A DNA stretch of 64,000 bases from a virus. The position numbers and the translations under genes are program-made. This document shows positions 8,969-18,007 of the stretch, piece by piece. Each line of letters begins with the position of its first letter. The first letter of the stretch is position 1. The stretch is taken from the IMG/VR virus record IMGVR_UViG_3300050821_003995, positions 1 to 64,000 of that record; one strand, given 5' to 3'. The notes beneath the pieces are model-generated. The model made no database searches, was not told the origin of the DNA, and saw only the letters and a list, made by a program, of their open reading frames with translations.

Positions 8969-9086
8969 TAGAATTGGAGCCAAGCCCATTTAACGCCTAG
9001 CTGGGCATGTGTTTCGGCTAGGGCTTGGCATTTTATTGGGGTTGATCTTGAGTGCCCACAAGCAATATCCCAATAAAAAGATCGAG

Positions 9087-9446
9087 TTATGCCGTCAGAA
9101 TCGACATCCAGGCTTTGGCCTTGTACTGGACGAAACACGCACCCTTGTGGGTGGCAAGGCTCAGGCCAGTAGTACCAGCGACCGTATTGAGCGTATGCCC
9201 AACCGGCACGTAAACGATGCCTGTCGAACCCGACGAGTTAAAGACCCAGCACGGTGTGCCCTGATCGACATTCGGCAAAATGATGCCATCAGCACCAGTT
9301 GCCGTCATCTCGATCATCTTGGAATTGACCGTTGCTGCGTTGGCTTGGGTAGAACCAGCGGCAGCAACAAGCGACGGGGCATAGCCAAGCAGCCCGGCCA
9401 AGTTGTAGGGCATACTCGCGCCCATCAGATCAGTTTGCAAAGCCAT
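9087..9446 (-). CDS. small structural (head-associated) protein
   Basis: AAAGSTQANAA and VYVPVGHTLN motifs; capsid operon position. Confidence 0.6.
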   Translation of the reverse strand: MALQTDLMGASMPYNLAGLLGYAPSLVAAAGSTQANAATVNSKMIEMTATGADGIILPNVDQGTPCWVFNSSGSTGIVYVPVGHTLNTVAGTTGLSLATHKGACFVQYKAKAWMSILTA

Positions 9447-9538
9447 CGGTTGTTACTCCTCTCGTTCGTTCCAATCGAAGACGATGTTACTCGTAGTAGC
9501 ACCGCCGCAATTGGTTTCACGACGGGAACTGGGAGAGC

Positions 9539-10600
9539 CTAAGCTCTCAAAGCTTTTTCAATCGGCATCTTAGCCCGGTTGATCCTATTTTTCAAGGTGC
9601 TTAAGGGCAGCTTATACTCCAGCGCCCAAGCAGTCATGGATTGGGTTTTGCCAAAAGCCGTAAACAACTTATATCCAATTCGTGGGCCTGCTTTGCCTTT
9701 TTTGAGTGGCCCGGCAAACAAAGCCTTCTCAAGCGGCATGTTATACTTCAGAACACGTTGACGTATGGTTGAACGTGTGAGGCCAAGTTCTTCAGCCCAT
9801 TCTACCAATGTAAGTGATTTACCAGCAAATGTGTATTTTGGGGCTCTGGATTTCACTTTACGCCTTTTGAGAAGTTTGCCATCGCCGGCATAACGGGAAT
9901 AGCTTGGGGCAAATAGTTCGTCACCTATCATCCCGGCGTGAAAACGCCTTCTCAAAAGATCACGTGGCATTCCCTTTTCATCAGCCCAGTCAATCAAGAG
10001 CTTCTTCACTCCATTATGGGCTATGTAAAGATTATTCCTTAAGTTCCTTTGCTGCTGACCCGCCGTAGCCCACCGACAATTTGTTGGTTCATAATTACCA
10101 TGTTTGTCAGGGAACCGATCAAGGCTGGTGCCTTCGGGGCGTTCACCCATATCATCAATGAAACGCTCAAAACTATTTTTCCAACGCCTACAAACAACAA
10201 CTCCTTTACCACCATAACGGTGATAGTCGGGGGAATTCTTATTCGTACAGCGTTGCAACATGGATTCCCAAGATTTGAAGGTTCTGGTTCCAGTCATCCC
10301 ATGCTTATAATAATTGGCAATCGCGCTGGGGTGACTATTGAGAAGTTTGTCCTTAAACTTCTTTATAAACCGATCCTCAGTTTCCCACATCTTGACGTGT
10401 GTACGACAAATCCTGAAAAGCACAATGTCGAAGTTTGCTTCACCGTATTTGTCCCAGCACTGCTGCAACTTCTTATGGATGCTCTTGCCGGCACGCAAAT
10501 ATACCAAGTGACGCCGTGTTCTGTTTTCCCAGTTTATTCCCGAACCAACATAAATCTCACCCGTAACTAAACAACGAATACCATACACACCTGCTTGCAT
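9539..10600 (-). CDS. free-standing homing endonuclease: GIY-YIG + HNH-type domain + 3 HTH-like repeats
   Basis: GVYGI...YVGS...R...E; then SWESMLQRC...YGGKGV...SLDRFPD...YEPTNCRWAT; repeats HNGVKKLLIDWA / FAGKSLTLVEWA / FGKTQSMTAWA. Confidence 0.85.
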   Translation of the reverse strand: MQAGVYGIRCLVTGEIYVGSGINWENRTRRHLVYLRAGKSIHKKLQQCWDKYGEANFDIVLFRICRTHVKMWETEDRFIKKFKDKLLNSHPSAIANYYKHGMTGTRTFKSWESMLQRCTNKNSPDYHRYGGKGVVVCRRWKNSFERFIDDMGERPEGTSLDRFPDKHGNYEPTNCRWATAGQQQRNLRNNLYIAHNGVKKLLIDWADEKGMPRDLLRRRFHAGMIGDELFAPSYSRYAGDGKLLKRRKVKSRAPKYTFAGKSLTLVEWAEELGLTRSTIRQRVLKYNMPLEKALFAGPLKKGKAGPRIGYKLFTAFGKTQSMTAWALEYKLPLSTLKNRINRAKMPIEKALRA

Positions 10601-10667
10601 TTGAAGGCCCCTGCCGGTTGATTGGGCTAAGAACTTAACCCATTTCACCGGCAGGGTCAACTTTTCA

Positions 10668-13351
10668 TTACGCTGTCAACACACCCTGGAGAACAGTTTT
10701 GTTATCGTTTTGGCTCTTTATCCAAAACTTCTGCATGTTGCCATGCAGCTCGGACTATATCATCACCATTTGCGGTGCCGGGGGCTCGTGGCTGGGTTAT
10801 TCTTTCGTCACCAGCTAGTCTCTAGACCTTCCGCAGCCCTGGGCTTCACCCTACGTCTGCGGCTTGGTACGGGATTGTCTCATTTAAGAGGTTTTCCCCG
10901 TTTCACCCGGTTTTCCTCAGTTTAGTGGTAGGTCTGAGGGCGCGTCTCATTACACGCATTGGACAGGGTCATATTTCCAGCCCAACCAATTAATCTTACC
11001 ATGGCGTCTTGATTTATCGAGAAGCGGTCTGGATCAAGAGGAACCATGTTACGCCTCGCATGGGGTCTCCAATGTAGATATTTGGTATTGAGCATGTAGC
11101 CGGTGGTCGAAGGAGCACCGCCTACTGCACTTGTTGAAGATGACACCTGGGGTGGCAGCGGATCGCTGCTGAAGCCCTGGAAGCCACCATCCAGCACAAC
11201 GTCGCTGTTCAGGTACTTGAGAACCTGAAAGCCAGCCTCAGCCATGTCACCCGGCACTGCCTCAGGGCCAATCCGCTGAATGGATTGGAGGGCCTGGAGG
11301 TAGTACCTGTACATCACGTTATCCATGATGATCAGGTCAGGGTAGTCACGGCCACGGACGAGCTGCACCCACAGCGCGTTCATTTGGCTGATGATGTTTG
11401 CCGCACCCAGCGTGACGCCGCCGTTGGTGTTGGCGGACCACGCCTGATTGCGCCAGAACGTCCACTGTGCACGGTCAATACCTCCAACTGTACCGGAGGT
11501 TGGTGTGCTGGCCACCAAGAGCTGGAGGCCACCCACCGAGTTGGTCACCGTGCCGTCTCCGTAAACTCCCTGGCTCAATCCGTTCATGAACGTATCTTCC
11601 AGATATGTTAGCGTCCCTTTGTGAGGGACGCCGGGGATTTTAACATCCCCCTGCATATTCCTATGCAGCTCGGAGCACATCTTCCCTTCCGGGGTTGGCT
11701 CATGCTCTCTACGCGCGCCCAGAGCAAACTTGCTCTTGCTTGGTTCGGGATTGTCCTTCCGCGTTCCATTGGAACCGGGCATCGGATGTTCCCCGACTTC
11801 GCCAACATTCTGACTACGGCCTTTTAACTCCGTAGCAGGCCCAGCGCTTTATGCGCAAGCGTTCATGATGCGGGATTCGAGAAGGTCAATGATGGCCTCC
11901 TCACCAGAGTTTTGTAACTCCTCAAGGCCGGAGATGGATACCGCGACAGCCGCTTGGCGGATTGGGTACTCCGCCGCAGAGAACACTTGGGAAGGCGCGA
12001 TATTAAGCGTCTGGTACCCAGAATCGATATGTTATTTGTCGACCTGTTTATGATCGGCTTCTGCATGTCACCATGCAGTCCAGACTATCTCTTCCCTTTC
12101 GGGTTGGGCGCTCGTGGACCCGTTACTGCTTTCGCTCGGGGTCTAGTCGTTACACCTTCTGCACCCCTCCTATTCCTAAAAATAGTACGTGTGCAGCTTG
12201 GCTCGGTATTTACTCCACCACCTACCAGCGGTACTGTGGAGTGGTTCACCGACTTCACCCAAATTTCACTAGGAAGCCAATGCCAGCAAACCTGAGTACA
12301 CCATCGATCCGGCCTTGGAGAAAGACTGGATTTGAGTTCCCATGCACAATCTGCGGTAAGATTGTTTACCGCAGGGCATCACAAATAGCCCGTGGTATAG
12401 TCAAAACCTGCGGTGCTCCTGAATGCAAAAGCGCTTCAATGAGCGGTGATAAGAACCCTTTTTGGGGTAAATCACACCCACCAGAAGTACGCGACCGGAT
12501 CAAGACTGGCCGCGCTCTTGCAGTAAAACACAAACGCAAATCAGGACCGCCTAAAACCAACAAAGTCAGAATAGAACGTAAGAAAGCTGTCCGACTTCGT
12601 TGGTTTTCAAACCGGGATGTGATGCTGGCCGGTCTTAAGCCATCAGAAAAGGACAAAACCCGTGAGCAAAAGCGCTACAGATATTGCTTCACTCGATGGC
12701 AACGTGAGAACTGGACCGGTGACAAGTGTGCTTGGTGTGGCACTACGGATGATCTTGTACTTGACCACATCCTTCCAGTTGTATGTGGGGGCAAAAACAA
12801 ACGTACAAACGCACAAACACTTTGCCGACCGTGCAACTTATGGAAGATGGTCTACGTTGACCGCCCGCTGTATCTTGCTGGTTTAGGCCTCGAAGGAGGC
12901 TAGGGGTTTAACCCCACCACTGATATGTCTGATTATCGGCATAATTCAATTCCTGAACTATGGTCCGACCACCAGAAAACGTCTTCAGGTTCCTATGTTA
13001 GCCGCAGTGGCTCTTTATCCACTGCCTCAATGGCTTCACTTCACCATTGTTCGGACTATCTCTTCACCTTTCGGCGCTCCGCGCTCGTGGGTAGGTAGCT
13101 TTCACCCCCACCTAGTCTCTACACCTTCCATGCCCCTGAGCCTTGTTGGGCCTACGTGCATGGCTTGGCTCGGTATTAGCATCTCAGCCTTCACCGAATT
13201 CACGGAGTTACGTGGCAACCTAGATACAACTTTTACCACGCCTTGTGAGCCTCAGCAACGCTGCGTTGTTTCGGCTCATGTTATCAGCGAGTTCCCCGGT
13301 ACGATTTCGGAGAGTCGTAGTTACGATCTCCGATAAGTTTGGGAAGGCCAT
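10668..13351 (-). CDS. major capsid protein, 343 aa, join(13351-13235,12991-12916,12024-11858,11599-10954,10693-10668)
   Basis: Removing 4 introns gives one 1032-nt frame: MAFPNLSEIVTTTLRNRTGELADN...RRG/NLKTFSGG...YQW/YSGYQTL...RIMNA/EDTFMNG...TLSNA/FLQGVLTA; follows the scaffold gene. Confidence 0.93.
10694..10953 (-). mobile_element. group I intron 4 of MCP (260 nt, no ORF)
   Basis: P1 GCGU|GU:ACGCGC with U-G; P AAACGGGGAA, Q AAUCCCGUAC, R UAGAGACUA, S AUGAUAUAGUC; restores SNA-FLQG. Confidence 0.92.
11600..11857 (-). mobile_element. group I intron 3 of MCP (258 nt, no ORF, variant P7)
   Basis: U/G boundaries restore MNA-EDTF; P AAGUCGGGGAA, Q AAUCCCGAAC, P3 GUUGGC/GCCAAC, P7 GAGCA/UGCUC. 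Confidence 0.88.
12025..12915 (-). mobile_element. group I intron 2 of MCP (891 nt) carrying an antisense HNH gene
   Basis: U/G boundaries restore WYSGY; core AAGUCGGUGAA, AAUACCGAG, GUAACGACUA, AAGAGAUAGUC in about 12025-12270. Confidence 0.9.
12280..12903 (+). CDS. intron-borne HNH homing endonuclease (Zn-finger + NUMOD3-like + HNH), antisense to the intron
   Basis: CTICG..CGAPEC; GDKNPFWGKSH; CAWCG...DHILPVVCGGKN..TNAQTLCRPCN; AGGAAG before ATG 12280. Confidence 0.85.
   Translation: MPANLSTPSIRPWRKTGFEFPCTICGKIVYRRASQIARGIVKTCGAPECKSASMSGDKNPFWGKSHPPEVRDRIKTGRALAVKHKRKSGPPKTNKVRIERKKAVRLRWFSNRDVMLAGLKPSEKDKTREQKRYRYCFTRWQRENWTGDKCAWCGTTDDLVLDHILPVVCGGKNKRTNAQTLCRPCNLWKMVYVDRPLYLAGLGLEGG
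12992..13234 (-). mobile_element. group I intron 1 of MCP (243 nt, no ORF)
   Basis: Exon ends in U, intron ends in G; P1 CGUGGU:GCCACG with U-G; P10 AGGUU:AACCU; P AAUUCGGUGAA, Q AAUACCGAG, R GUAGAGACUA, S AAGAGAUAGUC. Confidence 0.93.
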
Positions 13352-13614
13352 TTTCTTTTACCTTTCATGGTTCCCAACCGGTTGATGTTTATGCGCGCTG
13401 CCCTACGGCGTGGTTCGCGGTGCGCCCTGTCCTTGGCCCGCTAATGACGCCTGTCTGACTCTTACGCCCGCACGGTTTGTTACGCTTGCGGCTGACTGCC
13501 CTGTGAGGCACCCCTGACCGCTATGGGGTTTGTTTGTTGAAGCTTTTAGCCCAGCTTCAAGGGCTGACCGTACCTTGTGGGGCACGGCTTGCTTTTTATC
13601 TTTTCACTTGTCAA
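13352..13614 (-). promoter_or_regulatory. structured leader of the MCP gene with upstream TTGACA
   Basis: TTGACA at 13614-13609 (no clear -10); pseudoknot-compatible pairings at 13565-13537 and 13528-13488. Confidence 0.45.
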
Positions 13615-13638
13615 ACAGCGAACGCTTACAAAATTGAA

Positions 13639-14928
13639 TTATACACGCCCCGCCCGCTCAGCGACTTCGCGCTGCGCATCTTCAAGGGATTCACGCACGG
13701 ACTTGCCACGCTTCTGGTTCTTGGGCGCAGCGCCATTGGGCGCACCCGGTGCGCTGATGGGGATGCTACCTGACGCCTTGCGCGCAGCTTCCAGCTTCGT
13801 TCGTTGTGCGTCCTTTTCGGCCTGTGCCGCAGCAGCCTTGGTGGCCGCTTCGGCGTCAACCATGGCCTTCTGGGCTTTGGCGCGCACGGCCGGGTCGGCA
13901 TACACCGCCATATCGTAAGCTTTGTCCAAATCAGCATTGCCATTGGGCAACGGTGGCACCACGGCCGGTTCGCCGTTTGGCCCAGGTGACAGGAACTTCG
14001 CCATGAGGCCGCGCACTTCACCGTAAAATGGCTTGTCCTTGGACCACATGCCCAGCATTTCTTCGGTCTTCTGCATCGATTGCTGCTGGACCGTGGTGGC
14101 AAGCTGGTTGATGCCTTGACCCACCGGGGCAATGATCGAATCGATGTATGCCTTGACGGCAGGATCAAGCTGACCGTTCGGTTGACCCTGCGGGGCACCC
14201 TGTTGCTGCTGTTGAGCCTGCGGGTTCTGCACCATGTGGGCCAACAGCTTGACCGGGTCGATGCCGTAGCTCTGCGCCAGCGCGGCGAACACACCCTCGG
14301 GGGCTTTGCCAGCTTTCAAGCCCGCTGCTTCGCGGGTCAGTGCATCCATCCAGCCAAAGAGCTGCTTGACGGCAGCGGCAGGGGTGATCTTGTGATGCTG
14401 GATGGCCCCCAAGTAGGGCTGGATGGCACCATCAAGTTCGGCGTAGCCCTTCTTCAACTGCTCAACACCGGCCGCCATGTCGGTTTCGCGCTTGGCAACG
14501 GCAGCCTGTACGGCCGGGGGCACCTTGGCCCACTCAGCCTTGGCCTCTTTGGGCCAACCCTCAGGGGCAGCTATTTGCTGTTGTTCCTGCGGCTTCGGCT
14601 CTTGGCCTTCCTGCTCCCCCGCTTCAGGGTCCGGCGCTAGCCCTTCCTGACGGGCGCGGCTTTGCTGCTGACCTTTCTTGGGTTCGGGCTGAGCCTTGCG
14701 AGCTTTATTGGCAGCGCCCTCAAGCTGCTTGCGAAGCTTGCTGCGTCCACTACCTGGTCCTTCCGGCTGCTGTTCCTGCGGTTCCGGCTCCGCGCCCTCA
14801 ACTTCGCCACCCGTGTCGGCTGGCGGCGGGGCAGCCCCACCCGGCTCGGCGCCGGTATCAGCGCCCGCACCGGCACCTGTCTCGGGGGCATAGCAAGGAA
14901 GGGGACCGAATGTTCGCACCAACATCAC
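13639..14928 (-). CDS. capsid scaffolding protein
   Basis: Acidic disordered N-terminus, APEGW..EW motif, LDKAYDMAVYADP; lies between portal and MCP. Confidence 0.8.
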   Translation of the reverse strand: MMLVRTFGPLPCYAPETGAGAGADTGAEPGGAAPPPADTGGEVEGAEPEPQEQQPEGPGSGRSKLRKQLEGAANKARKAQPEPKKGQQQSRARQEGLAPDPEAGEQEGQEPKPQEQQQIAAPEGWPKEAKAEWAKVPPAVQAAVAKRETDMAAGVEQLKKGYAELDGAIQPYLGAIQHHKITPAAAVKQLFGWMDALTREAAGLKAGKAPEGVFAALAQSYGIDPVKLLAHMVQNPQAQQQQQGAPQGQPNGQLDPAVKAYIDSIIAPVGQGINQLATTVQQQSMQKTEEMLGMWSKDKPFYGEVRGLMAKFLSPGPNGEPAVVPPLPNGNADLDKAYDMAVYADPAVRAKAQKAMVDAEAATKAAAAQAEKDAQRTKLEAARKASGSIPISAPGAPNGAAPKNQKRGKSVRESLEDAQREVAERAGRV

Positions 14929-14997
14929 CGTAACTCCGTGGTTTTAAGCTTCGCAGCCAAAGACATGTCTAATTGTCTTCTTGAACGGCGTCAATCG

Positions 14998-15297
14998 CTA
15001 TTTGTTCCTGGCTTCGTACAACGCTTGCCTGATCTGTTCGCGGCGTTGCCCACGATCCATTGGGATCATTTTACGGGGACGTGGCAGGGCCTGTGCATCG
15101 TTGCCATATTCGATACAGCCAGATGCTTTGGTGTCTTTGCGGAATTCCGATTTCGACGTGTGATAGCGCTTCGTAGCCATGTGCAGCGTTGGCTCCATAA
15201 TATCTGAGATCACGCCGGGCGCGCTCTGACTGAAATGCAAGGACTTGGCACGGCGCTTGTCAACAACTTTACCATTACGATACACATAAACCGGCAT
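14998..15297 (-). CDS. small head-module protein
   Basis: MPVYVYRNG...YHTSKSEFRKDTKASGCIEYGND; GAGGAG SD. Confidence 0.65.
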   Translation of the reverse strand: MPVYVYRNGKVVDKRRAKSLHFSQSAPGVISDIMEPTLHMATKRYHTSKSEFRKDTKASGCIEYGNDAQALPRPRKMIPMDRGQRREQIRQALYEARNK

Positions 15298-15385
15298 TGT
15301 CTGCTCCTCAACTTGTTCAAGCCATGATCTTAGCGTTGGTCTAGGGCGCTTACGCTTGCGCCCGCGCCTGATCCTCAATCTCATA

Positions 15386-18007
15386 CTAGGCTGCCGGGTT
15401 TGCAGCCGGTTTTGGCACTTCGGGGGGCTGCATGGCTTCCTTGTGGAGCTGCGCAGCCTCAAACTGCATACGCATCTGCTCCATCTGCACTTCCATTTGA
15501 CGCATCAGCACTTCAAGTTCCTTGACTTTGATGTCTGCGGCCGAATTCTGTTGTTCGGTTTGGCTTTCCATCTCTTGTTTTTGTATTTCAGCGCCTGCCT
15601 GCTGCTGCTCGGCCTGCGATTTGAGATTTGTTGATTGGATCTCCGCGTGAGCCTTGACTGTATCGGCCTGAGCGCGGATTTTGCCAACCTCAACGGCAGA
15701 TTGAGCCTTGTCGGCCGCCGCCTTGGCCTTGATCTGCTCTGGGTTGGGCTGGTTGGCCTGATTTTGCTGTATCTGCTTGGCCTTGACCACCAGTTCGTCA
15801 ACAAGTTTCTCAATCGAACCCTCAAGTGAGCGCCCGACCCGGTAGGCACGTGAGGCAAACTGCAACATCTCACCCAGAAGCGGGATGGCCTCAGGCACCT
15901 GGGCACCCAAAGCAGCCGCTTCGCCAATGTACTTGGTGACGGCCTGCACGAATTCGGTTCTATCCTGCCGATCTTGTGCCTGATCGGGGAAGATAGTGCT
16001 GTCAACTTCAATATCTACCCTGAAACCACGCAGCCGCTCGTCACGCAACAGTCCAATGGCCTTGGCGATCTTCTGCAACGCCTGCATCTTGGCCACCATT
16101 TCGGGCGGCATAGGCGGTTGCGGGGGTAAAATGGTGCCATTGAGCGCCGGGGGCGGCGGTGTTGGTGCCTGACCGGGCATGCCGGGCTGCGGCGGCCCCC
16201 TGAATGGCACTACGTTTGAGGGTGATGGGGGTGCGCCCGGCTGGCCACCGGCCATAGGCGGCTGATTTTGGCCCGGTGGCGGGGCAGGCAGACCCAAAGG
16301 TGAGGGTGGGGCACCCGGCATAGGGGGTTGACCACCTGTCGGGGGTGCCATTTGGCCCCCTCCCTGACCCCCAGGCGGTGCCAAAGCGCTGAGGGTGGGC
16401 ATATCGTCAGCCCCAAGCCCTTCGTCGTAAAGCGCGCCTGAAGCTTCAATCAATGACTGCGGCGAAAAGTGCTGGCACATGATATCGGCCATGATCCTGA
16501 CCGTGTCGCGTGCCAACCGGGCCACTTCGTTTTGGCGGTTGGTCAAGCGGGTGCCGGTAGAATTGGATTTCAGCCGCACACCACCCAATGTTTCGCGGGC
16601 ATCGCTGGTGCCACGCATGATGTCGTTGATGCCGGTCAGCCGATCCATGTCCTCAAGCAGCTTGGCTTTGACCATCACAAGTTCGTTGATCAATCCAATG
16701 ATATCCTTGAGTGGCAGGAAGCTGATATTTCCGGCAACGCCGCCTTCTTCGGCAAACGCCGCCCAATCGTCCACCGGTATGAGTTCGTTCTCTACTGATT
16801 CCTGGAACATCCGCTGGATGTCCTTGGCGGCGGCATTGTACACACCCGTGATCTTGGCAGCCTTCACCAGCATGGCAATGCGCTGGGTCAGGTCATCAAT
16901 TTGAATTGCCTGATCCTCATACTGAATATAATCCGGTACCGGGATCAGCGTATTGGTGGTGGGGTTGGCAAAAATGGGCCGTGGCGTGGGGAAGAACTTC
17001 TCAAGGTTCAGCGGGTCGTCCTTGCGGTCACACAGATAGTTATAACCCATGGCCACCCAGTACACCGTTTGGTCGTCACGGTTCCAAATTTCAAAGATTT
17101 CACCCTTGTCCTGATCGGCCGCCTGCAACGTGGTGTTCTGCGTCTTGTCGCCACGGTGATCCTTTTGCAGTGCAATGGCCTTGCCAATTTTCTTGCCAAA
17201 ACGGCGGATCATTTGATCACGTGACAGGTACACACGCTTGCCTACTGCCGTCACTTCCTTCCAAATGCGGGCACGCACCGGGAACGTGAAGAAGTCATTC
17301 CATGGCACATAGTCAACCGGGGTGGATTCCCGCACCACCCGATCGTCGGTTTCCTCAAGCTTGGTGGTTTCGGGGTCCTGATCTTCACCCTCGTCGGGTT
17401 CCTCATTGCCTTCGGCCAAATGGGTGCGCTTGCGCCCCTTGGGGGTGAGGCTGTCATTGCTGCCGTCGTCCTCAGGGTAATCGCGGTCTGATTTGTCAGG
17501 CAGATGACCCTGAGAGTCACGCATGTCGGTCTGAGTTTCGACCGGCAGTGAAACGCCTTCGGCAATCTGCGGCTCATAGCGCACCCACACCACGCCCTGA
17601 CCGGGCAGCAGGTAGTCATCAACCGCTTGGCCCAAGGATTCATAGTAACCACAAATTTCGACTTCGTTGCGCAAGGCGCGCTCAAGAATAGTTGCGGCAC
17701 CGCGCGCCACCGGGTCCTTGTCGTTGAAACGCCTATCAGCAATGGGCAACGGCTCACGGCCCAGGAGGGCAGGCTTCAAAATTTGCACGTTTGACCACAA
17801 CGAACCGTAGCGCCGTGATCCATCCTCACCTGTCATGCGGATGCGGTCATCACGGTAGCGCTTTTGGATGGCTTCGCCACGCTTCAGATGGCGTTTGACT
17901 TCGGTGTTATCCAACACCGTTTGAATTTGATCCAGCCAGTATTTGGCTAGACGGCGGCTTTCATCACCACCATCGGGACCTGCCAGTTCGTCGAGTTCAA
18001 TGGCCAT
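15386..18007 (-). CDS. portal protein (P22-like with long C-terminal barrel)
   Basis: 873 aa downstream of TerL; TGINDIMRG and FRVDIEVDST motifs; C-terminal coiled coil; Pro-rich insert. Confidence 0.88.
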   Translation of the reverse strand: MAIELDELAGPDGGDESRRLAKYWLDQIQTVLDNTEVKRHLKRGEAIQKRYRDDRIRMTGEDGSRRYGSLWSNVQILKPALLGREPLPIADRRFNDKDPVARGAATILERALRNEVEICGYYESLGQAVDDYLLPGQGVVWVRYEPQIAEGVSLPVETQTDMRDSQGHLPDKSDRDYPEDDGSNDSLTPKGRKRTHLAEGNEEPDEGEDQDPETTKLEETDDRVVRESTPVDYVPWNDFFTFPVRARIWKEVTAVGKRVYLSRDQMIRRFGKKIGKAIALQKDHRGDKTQNTTLQAADQDKGEIFEIWNRDDQTVYWVAMGYNYLCDRKDDPLNLEKFFPTPRPIFANPTTNTLIPVPDYIQYEDQAIQIDDLTQRIAMLVKAAKITGVYNAAAKDIQRMFQESVENELIPVDDWAAFAEEGGVAGNISFLPLKDIIGLINELVMVKAKLLEDMDRLTGINDIMRGTSDARETLGGVRLKSNSTGTRLTNRQNEVARLARDTVRIMADIMCQHFSPQSLIEASGALYDEGLGADDMPTLSALAPPGGQGGGQMAPPTGGQPPMPGAPPSPLGLPAPPPGQNQPPMAGGQPGAPPSPSNVVPFRGPPQPGMPGQAPTPPPPALNGTILPPQPPMPPEMVAKMQALQKIAKAIGLLRDERLRGFRVDIEVDSTIFPDQAQDRQDRTEFVQAVTKYIGEAAALGAQVPEAIPLLGEMLQFASRAYRVGRSLEGSIEKLVDELVVKAKQIQQNQANQPNPEQIKAKAAADKAQSAVEVGKIRAQADTVKAHAEIQSTNLKSQAEQQQAGAEIQKQEMESQTEQQNSAADIKVKELEVLMRQMEVQMEQMRMQFEAAQLHKEAMQPPEVPKPAANPAA

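Follow-up and report, generated by a model that had tools for sequence, protein, structure and literature searches.

Textbook phage group I introns carry their homing-endonuclease gene on the intron's own strand, and how translation of the endonuclease is kept from disturbing folding of the ribozyme is a long-standing topic. The enzymes I-HmuI, I-HmuII and I-BasI, from introns in Bacillus phage DNA polymerase genes, are sense-strand HNH intron endonucleases. The phage intron HNH endonuclease I-PfoP3I nicks one strand of its target DNA (PMC3428280). The opposite orientation was described for the 820-bp intron in the major capsid protein (MCP) gene of mycobacteriophage LittleE, in which gp14, LAGLIDADG-like with an HNH-like tail, lies on the bottom strand and splicing was demonstrated by reverse transcription PCR and N-terminal protein sequencing (Pope et al., 2013, PLoS One 8:e69273; PMC3706429). 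The group I intron Dir.S956-2 in the nuclear ribosomal DNA (rDNA) of Didymium iridis carries the I-DirII gene in antisense, with its own RNA polymerase II (Pol II) promoter (Johansen et al., 2006, as cited in PMC3073962 and PMC3679873). Here, the second of four introns in an MCP gene (intron 2) was analyzed in a window of 64,000 nucleotides (nt), the first 64 kb of the 95,021-bp IMG/VR virus record IMGVR_UViG_3300050821_003995, from a soil metagenome (CheckV completeness 100%). The best explanation, which taken as a whole is probable, is that intron 2 belongs to the phage-type group I introns and is both functional and mobile, with P7.1/P7.2-like extra helices and without a native P2, and that it carries an antisense HNH mobility gene that would be looped out by a P2-like helix, expressed from a separate + strand transcript and spread by homing.

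The MCP gene lies on the - strand, as do the structural genes across positions 1-36.6 kb of the window. Its nearest cultured relatives are those of Bradyrhizobium phage ppBjS10J-1 (52%), Stenotrophomonas phage BUCT555 and the Myxococcus phages Mx8/Mx9 (~46%), all of them uninterrupted; a megablast search of window positions 9000-16000 against cultured phages gave no match. A scan of IMG/VR with the largest MCP exon as query yielded 80 related loci (cited below by L number), most of them with an uninterrupted MCP of 344 amino acids (aa), as in L006 (5638-6669). Exon peptides mapped on the uninterrupted relatives placed four interruptions in the window gene, and the junctions were chosen to leave U as the last base of each 5' exon and G as the last base of each intron. 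In-silico removal of the introns (243, 891, 258 and 260 nt, in order) gave a coding sequence of 1032 nt for a protein of 343 aa, 88% identical to L006 without gaps, and matched exactly the interval that a first-pass annotation of this DNA had assigned to intron 2. The last exon base before intron 2 is U at 12916 and the last intron base is G at 12025 (...AUAUCG^; a caret marks the splice site). Exon 2 ends in ...CAGUGGU at 12916, exon 3 begins with AUUCUGGG at 12024, and their join encodes QW-Y-SGYQTLNI, matching the uninterrupted homologues.

Three matches to RF00028 were found on the - strand of the window, at 13263-13030, 12334-12061 and 11002-10731. The second falls in intron 2 (44.3 bits, E 4.8e-9) and covers model positions 1-253 in full; relatives of intron 2 score 50-78 bits. 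Among 28 cores from HNH-bearing introns, compensatory changes were present at 32 of the 40 consensus pairs, in P3, P4, P5, P6, the P7.1/7.2-like helices, P8 and P9. Covariation of this kind is the signature of ribozymes under selection, and the MCP is essential; splicing is therefore argued to work despite the antisense insert. Intron 2 probably splices in vivo.

On the + strand the open reading frame (ORF) is open from 12073 to 12903, and the family-typical start is ATG 12280, from whose Met 37 database relatives, mostly of 200-210 aa, were aligned. A Shine-Dalgarno-like motif precedes this ATG (Table 1); such motifs occur in only part of the relatives. The protein scored above the Pfam cut-offs for HNH_5 (PF14279; 36.7 bits, cut-off 27.5) and HNH (PF01844; 26.9 bits, cut-off 21.4). 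It is built of an N-terminal zinc-finger-like CxxC...C....C motif, a NUMOD3-like segment and a C-terminal HNH domain (DH...N...N with four Cys), and a precomputed match to NUMOD3 (PF07460) is above threshold for most of the 37 homologues. All 26 invariant columns of a 27-sequence alignment are kept by the window protein, including C150/C153/C182/C185, D162-H163, N177 and N186, and the invariant columns of the family also take in the N-terminal motif. The AlphaFold model is modular (mean predicted local distance difference test score 75, predicted template modelling score 0.36). Foldseek against the PDB matched the HNH domain alone, with a weak E, to 4h9d, a nicking HNH protein of Geobacter and the closest solved structure by sequence and fold. 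By analogy with other intron HNH enzymes, the protein presumably has nuclease activity, directed at the target proposed below. The HNH family comprises 33 clusters at E<=1e-30, and tblastn against cultured phages returned short HNH-motif matches and nothing more. The ORF, the splice boundaries and the position of the core together confirm the anatomy read in the first-pass annotation, namely an HNH gene antisense within intron 2, between the 5' splice site with P1 and the P3 core.

Scans with the HNH alignment yielded 24 viral and 80 metagenome loci, each of which was oriented with HNH on the + strand. When 35 of them (HNH relatives 39-62% identical) were tested with cmscan, 14 of 16 viral and 16 of 19 metagenome loci (30/35 in total) showed a group I core that is antisense to HNH and lies immediately upstream of its start, and none had a same-strand core; the remaining loci mostly showed three core motifs in the same antisense order. 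The flanks of the HNH-bearing introns are MCP exons on the - strand, 27-75% identical to L006 and split at aa 64-72. Such introns occupy codon 66 or codon 69 in about 50 loci from soil and freshwater metagenomes. Codon 66 is used by the window, L108/109, L111, L116, L121 and the L090/L119/L123/L127 groups, and codon 69 (GGG T^AC) by L086-L089, L094-L099, L112-L117, L122, L132, L133 and others. At codon 69 the HNH stop codon straddles the splice site in at least 10 loci, where it is complementary to U(-1)^U(+1)A/G(+2). For several homologues the gene call runs too far at the N-terminus; the added residues, ...SPDY(L/I)(F/I)PFG.GARG..., come from the conserved J8/7-P8-P3' core translated in antisense. 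The layout is probably shared by the closest HNH relatives (P0002, 84% identical; P0003; P0004), in whose mis-called extensions at both termini the antisense of the core and of P1 can be read. The antisense orientation is thus a fixed design of the whole HNH/intron family and not a single oddity, and the initial view of the locus as a single case was not borne out. Other endonuclease genes in introns of the same MCP (GIY-YIG, a different HNH, LAGLIDADG) mostly run in the sense direction.

The position of the gene within the intron was defined by comparison with ORF-less introns, which occur at the insertion site of intron 2 in five related loci (~247 nt in L054, L030 and L061; longer in L010 and L048). 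Their core and 3' tail are homologous to those of intron 2 (75.6% over 176 nt for L054), and they differ from intron 2 in having no endonuclease gene and in a P1 (6 bp, AGUGGU, loop, GCCACU) joined directly through UAA to P3, with no P2. Because P3 begins three nt after P1 in these introns, the HNH gene is an insertion of ~640 nt at the P1/P3 junction. Intron-less, ORF-less and ORF-bearing alleles all occur at the same site among the relatives.

The weak, bulged P1 reported earlier for intron 2 (GGU^GGGG-UUAAA-CCCC-UA-GCC) is present, and the same design recurs with other hairpin sequences in L108/L109 (GGU^U-GCGGG-GCAA-CCCGC-UA-GCC) and L121 (GGU^A-ACGGC-GAAA-GCCGU-AA-GCC), the inner hairpin covarying. 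GCCUCC stands in intron 2 at the position of the guide sequence GCCACU of the ORF-less relatives, and the 5' splice-site U faces G12900 in P1, where a U.G pair would be possible. The HNH stop codon lies 12 nt from the 5' splice site. The C-terminal Gly-Gly codons of the protein coincide, on the opposite strand, with the guide sequence, the last Gly codon GGC being the complement of the guide GCC that pairs with exon GGU. A derivation of the inner GGGG/CCCC hairpin from a codon-69 intron shifted by 9 nt was considered and dropped as unnecessary, given codon-66 HNH-bearing relatives with the same P1.

A pairing of the two ends of the ORF, by which the gene could be looped out, had been proposed from two heptamers. 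Both are present: CCAGCAA(G) at 12880-12873 and (U)UUGCUGG at 12290-12283, on the - strand, can form 7 bp, or 8 bp with a G.U pair. In the window alone the pairing is modestly beyond chance (z -1.5 against shuffles). An initial test of the duplex, in which flanks of 80-90 nt were compared with mononucleotide shuffles, yielded mixed z-scores and was replaced by a comparison of cognate with non-cognate pairs in 28 loci, in which duplex energies were computed between 60 nt at the 3' end of the ORF antisense and 60 nt before P3. The mean energy was -32.1 kcal/mol for cognate and -26.5 kcal/mol for non-cognate pairs (p 2e-5), and the window's cognate pairing was the best of 28 in its own row. After double-centring, which removes row and column composition effects, 27/28 cognate pairs were favoured, by a mean of 7.6 kcal/mol (permutation p ~1e-4). 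This family-wide complementarity of the ORF ends, beyond the non-cognate controls, supports the helix.

With these elements the following course of events may be proposed. The 207-aa HNH gene fills the whole P1-P3 junction on the opposite strand, and in the pre-mRNA the antisense ORF of ~620 nt would be looped out through end-to-end pairing in the P2-like helix. P1 could then dock on the core and the intron would splice, giving a normal MCP. The gene, being antisense, is unreadable from the intron RNA and therefore requires a separate + strand transcript, as the first-pass annotation had already stated. I-DirII and LittleE gp14 are precedents for an antisense intron endonuclease with a transcript of its own. 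This transcript would probably start in the antisense of the ribozyme core or of the 3' exon, with translation from the AGGAAG-ATG start at 12270-12282; early timing and an interplay of the two RNAs are speculation. By analogy with intron HNH enzymes, the endonuclease would most likely nick or cut intron-less MCP alleles of co-infecting relatives near codons 66-69, and repair of the cut allele would copy the intron in.

Table 1. Features of the intron 2 locus in the window (caret, splice site)
Feature	Position	Strand	Description
MCP exons	13351-13235, 12991-12916, 12024-11858, 11599-10954, 10693-10668	-	in-silico splicing
MCP exon 2	12916-12991	-	NLKTFSGGRTIVQELNYADNQTYQW + T of codon 66; homologue mapping, in-silico splicing
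Group I intron 2 of MCP	12025-12915	-	891 nt; inside codon Tyr66 (TGG T^AT TCT GGG)
P1 of intron 2	12895-12918	-	exon GGU 12918-12916 pairs with GCC 12900-12898; inner hairpin GGGG-UUAAA-CCCC 12915-12903; UA bulge
Proposed P2-like helix, 5' strand	12873-12880	-	CCAGCAAG; overlaps HNH codons Leu-Ala-Gly
Proposed P2-like helix, 3' strand	12283-12290	-	UUUGCUGG; overlaps HNH codons 2-4
HNH homing-endonuclease gene	12280-12903	+ (antisense to intron)	207 aa + stop TAG 12901-12903
Shine-Dalgarno-like AGGAAG	12270-12275	+	4 nt before ATG 12280; read from sequence
Ribozyme core P3-P9 and 3' tail	12025-12271	-	P3 UUUGGGUG, J8/7 AAGAGAUAGUC, P9 CUGCAUGGUGACAUGCAG, end UAACAUAUCG; cmscan alignment
MCP exon 3	11858-12024	-	AT of codon 66, then SGYQTLNI...RIMNA

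Several observations weigh against a working, mobile intron of this kind. The genome is a metagenome assembly whose viability is assumed, the core of intron 2 (44.3 bits) scores below the RF00028 gathering score of 50, and exon and guide form only three pairs in P1. The proposed helix is absent from the minimum free energy (MFE) fold of the whole intron, MFE at 900 nt being untrustworthy either way, and the paired segments slide by a few nt between lineages, so that column-wise covariation is not demonstrable. For the gene itself, the match to NUMOD3 in the window copy (residues 51-74; 14.1 bits, E 0.045) is below the cut-off of 20.4; a scan of both strands over 11600-13400 turned up neither a sigma-70-like promoter nor an intrinsic terminator, and an 11-mer search turned up no recurrent phage motif upstream of the HNH ORF. 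The lack of a promoter and the sub-threshold NUMOD3 match would also fit an HNH gene that is a dead, silent remnant with no + strand product, in an intron that persists through splicing alone. So would a search for sequencing runs containing the sequence, in which no RNA run was found and the probable source DNA run was the only match, the damage seen in some relatives (the frameshifted C-terminus of L084/L085), and the existence of ORF-less derivatives of the intron, as expected from the gain-and-loss cycle of homing endonucleases. This decay, offered at the outset as the alternative, is very unlikely: the 207-codon frame is open, the family start, the length and all invariant catalytic and zinc residues are kept, and the antisense layout recurs in dozens of diverged loci with covarying cores. 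Length and layout are constant in relatives as distant as 39% identity, and this requires the protein to have been under purifying selection for a long time. Splicing might alternatively use the codon-69 site, after GGGU, with cleavage after ...UGGUGGGGU (12911) and before UACCAG (12016); that site is the one in most HNH-bearing relatives, and the intron start GGGGU-UAAAC resembles GGGU joined to UAAC, which are the exon end and intron start in codon-69 relatives. The product, however, would read QWWGYQ, one residue short and unlike any homologue, the perfectly conserved AUUCUGGG (the Y-S-G codons) would become intronic, and the splice-site U would face A, not G. The 3' tail also aligns with codon-66 relatives ending in ...AUCUG^AUUCC, and use of the codon-69 site is extremely improbable.

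A different role for the enzyme, in which it mainly damages the MCP gene of intron-less competitors in co-infection, and/or in which its mRNA stays antisense for mutual control of the two RNAs, is unlikely. One phage intron HNH endonuclease, that of PhiPA3, is reported to act in interference competition (PMC11620839). The HNH mRNA would moreover form a perfect complement of P1 and the guide sequence and, in many relatives, of the 5' splice site as well, and the antisense orientation is invariant in the HNH family, whereas the other endonuclease genes of the same MCP are mostly sense. The pattern of intron-less, ORF-less and ORF-bearing alleles is, however, the plain prediction of homing, and the invariant orientation is explicable by inheritance from one founding insertion. 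It is conceivable, if rather doubtful, that the antisense layout is an evolved control circuit and not an accident of insertion, with the two RNAs shutting each other off: an early + strand RNA would give the nuclease and block premature MCP splicing, and the later MCP pre-mRNA would silence the nuclease through duplex formation and degradation. Homing of a spliced, mobile intron with an antisense nuclease gene remains the preferred explanation.

Further observations were made on the HNH family and on the MCP gene. An extra A in CCUAAAACC puts the HNH gene out of frame near the C-terminus in L084 (3560-3680) and in L085, whose sequence is identical, and the ORF continues into exon antisense; either the copy is decaying or the homopolymer was misread in sequencing. 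L111 (1-1310; Ga0222737_1008701) reads, on the intron strand, as an MCP exon, a 900-nt HNH-bearing intron with its terminal G, and then 70 nt repeating intron positions 2-71, without a 3' exon. The repeat looks like a circle junction, from circular intron RNA if the source is a metatranscriptome, or else like a tandem or assembly artefact.

The MCP family (L004-L083; for example L048, L057, L059, L060 and L061) is an intron hotspot with up to six interruptions per gene, whose introns carry GIY-YIG, HNH and LAGLIDADG ORFs. The tblastn alignments break at well over ten positions: aa 27/28, 40/41, 55/56, 58-60, 63/64, 66, 69, 72, 80, 106/107, 121/122, 128/129, ~290, ~311, ~320 and 336/337. In L059 (6538-6999, -) a LAGLIDADG-like ORF (..YVAGLFDGEG..) lies antisense to the MCP, inserted near aa 292, and L060 has a similar ORF in sense at nearly the same site. 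L005 (4406-6657) has MCP exons 93-100% identical to those of the window and a different intron set, with a sense GIY-YIG insertion at aa 59/60 and no HNH intron; because the exons are near-identical and the intron sets differ, intron content turns over very fast. Intron 3 of the window (11600-11857, -; 258 nt, between MNA and EDT) gave no RF00028 match even at E<1; P4-P6-like and P9-like motifs are nevertheless present, together with a 3' tail (UAACAUAUCUG) that is the same as in the neighbouring introns and a diverged J8/7 (AAGAUGUGCUC). A GIY-YIG gene at 9539-10660 (-; PF01541, 8.7e-8) is free-standing, directly 3' of the MCP stop codon; it lies outside intron 4, because the last MCP exon (FLQGVLTA*, 10693-10668) ends before it.

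The antisense family represents a different solution to the conflict between endonuclease translation and ribozyme folding, its stop codon reaching or straddling the 5' splice site. It offers a natural system for overlapping constraints on protein and ribozyme from opposite strands, for convergent transcription within the late gene that a phage expresses most strongly, and for the colonization of an intron by an endonuclease gene, with ORF-less and ORF-bearing forms at the same site. It is also a warning for annotation, antisense ORFs within split MCP genes being real genes.

Compared with the sense-strand phage HNH introns (I-HmuI/I-HmuII/I-BasI and I-PfoP3I), the locus shares a group I intron in an essential gene and an HNH enzyme with accessory DNA-binding modules, and the nicking activity of I-PfoP3I parallels that of 4h9d, the closest solved relative of the window protein. 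The sense-strand systems differ in having the ORF on the intron's strand and in domain order, HNH being C-terminal in the window, and no close sequence relationship between the window protein and these enzymes was detectable in the phage collection. The first-pass annotation had noted that antisense endonuclease genes are known from nuclear rDNA introns, as I-DirII illustrates (PMC3073962, PMC3679873). The Didymium system, whose intron is self-splicing and mobile, resembles the locus in having an endonuclease gene antisense to the ribozyme, and differs in its eukaryotic rDNA host, His-Cys box enzyme, Pol II transcription, spliceosomal intron and poly(A), and in interrupting an rRNA rather than a protein gene. 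The further statement that such genes are unusual in phage introns needs qualifying, since LittleE is a published phage case (PMC3706429). Its antisense layout was confirmed in GenBank JF937101, with a core match on the MCP strand. LittleE resembles the window in a phage MCP gene split by a group I-type intron with an opposite-strand ORF annotated as an HNH endonuclease. Its gp14 is unrelated to the window protein (BLASTP E 7.6), and its gene follows the ribozyme core on the 3' side (core 1859-2062, ORF 2065-2598 in L188), whereas the window ORF lies between P1 and P3. LittleE is a single case among six Cluster J phages, whereas the HNH introns described here form a broad family; no overlap of the ORF with P1 or the splice site was reported for LittleE, whereas in that family the ORF end overlaps P1, the guide and the splice site. 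No description of an antisense P1-P3 HNH family was found in the open-access literature. What appears to be new is an HNH family absent from cultured phages, always antisense within the P1-P3 junction, that has spread over divergent MCP genes at two sites separated by 9 nt and whose ORF end overlaps P1, guide and splice site. The basic phenomenon is already published for LittleE and I-DirII, and the locus extends this known biology without adding a new principle.

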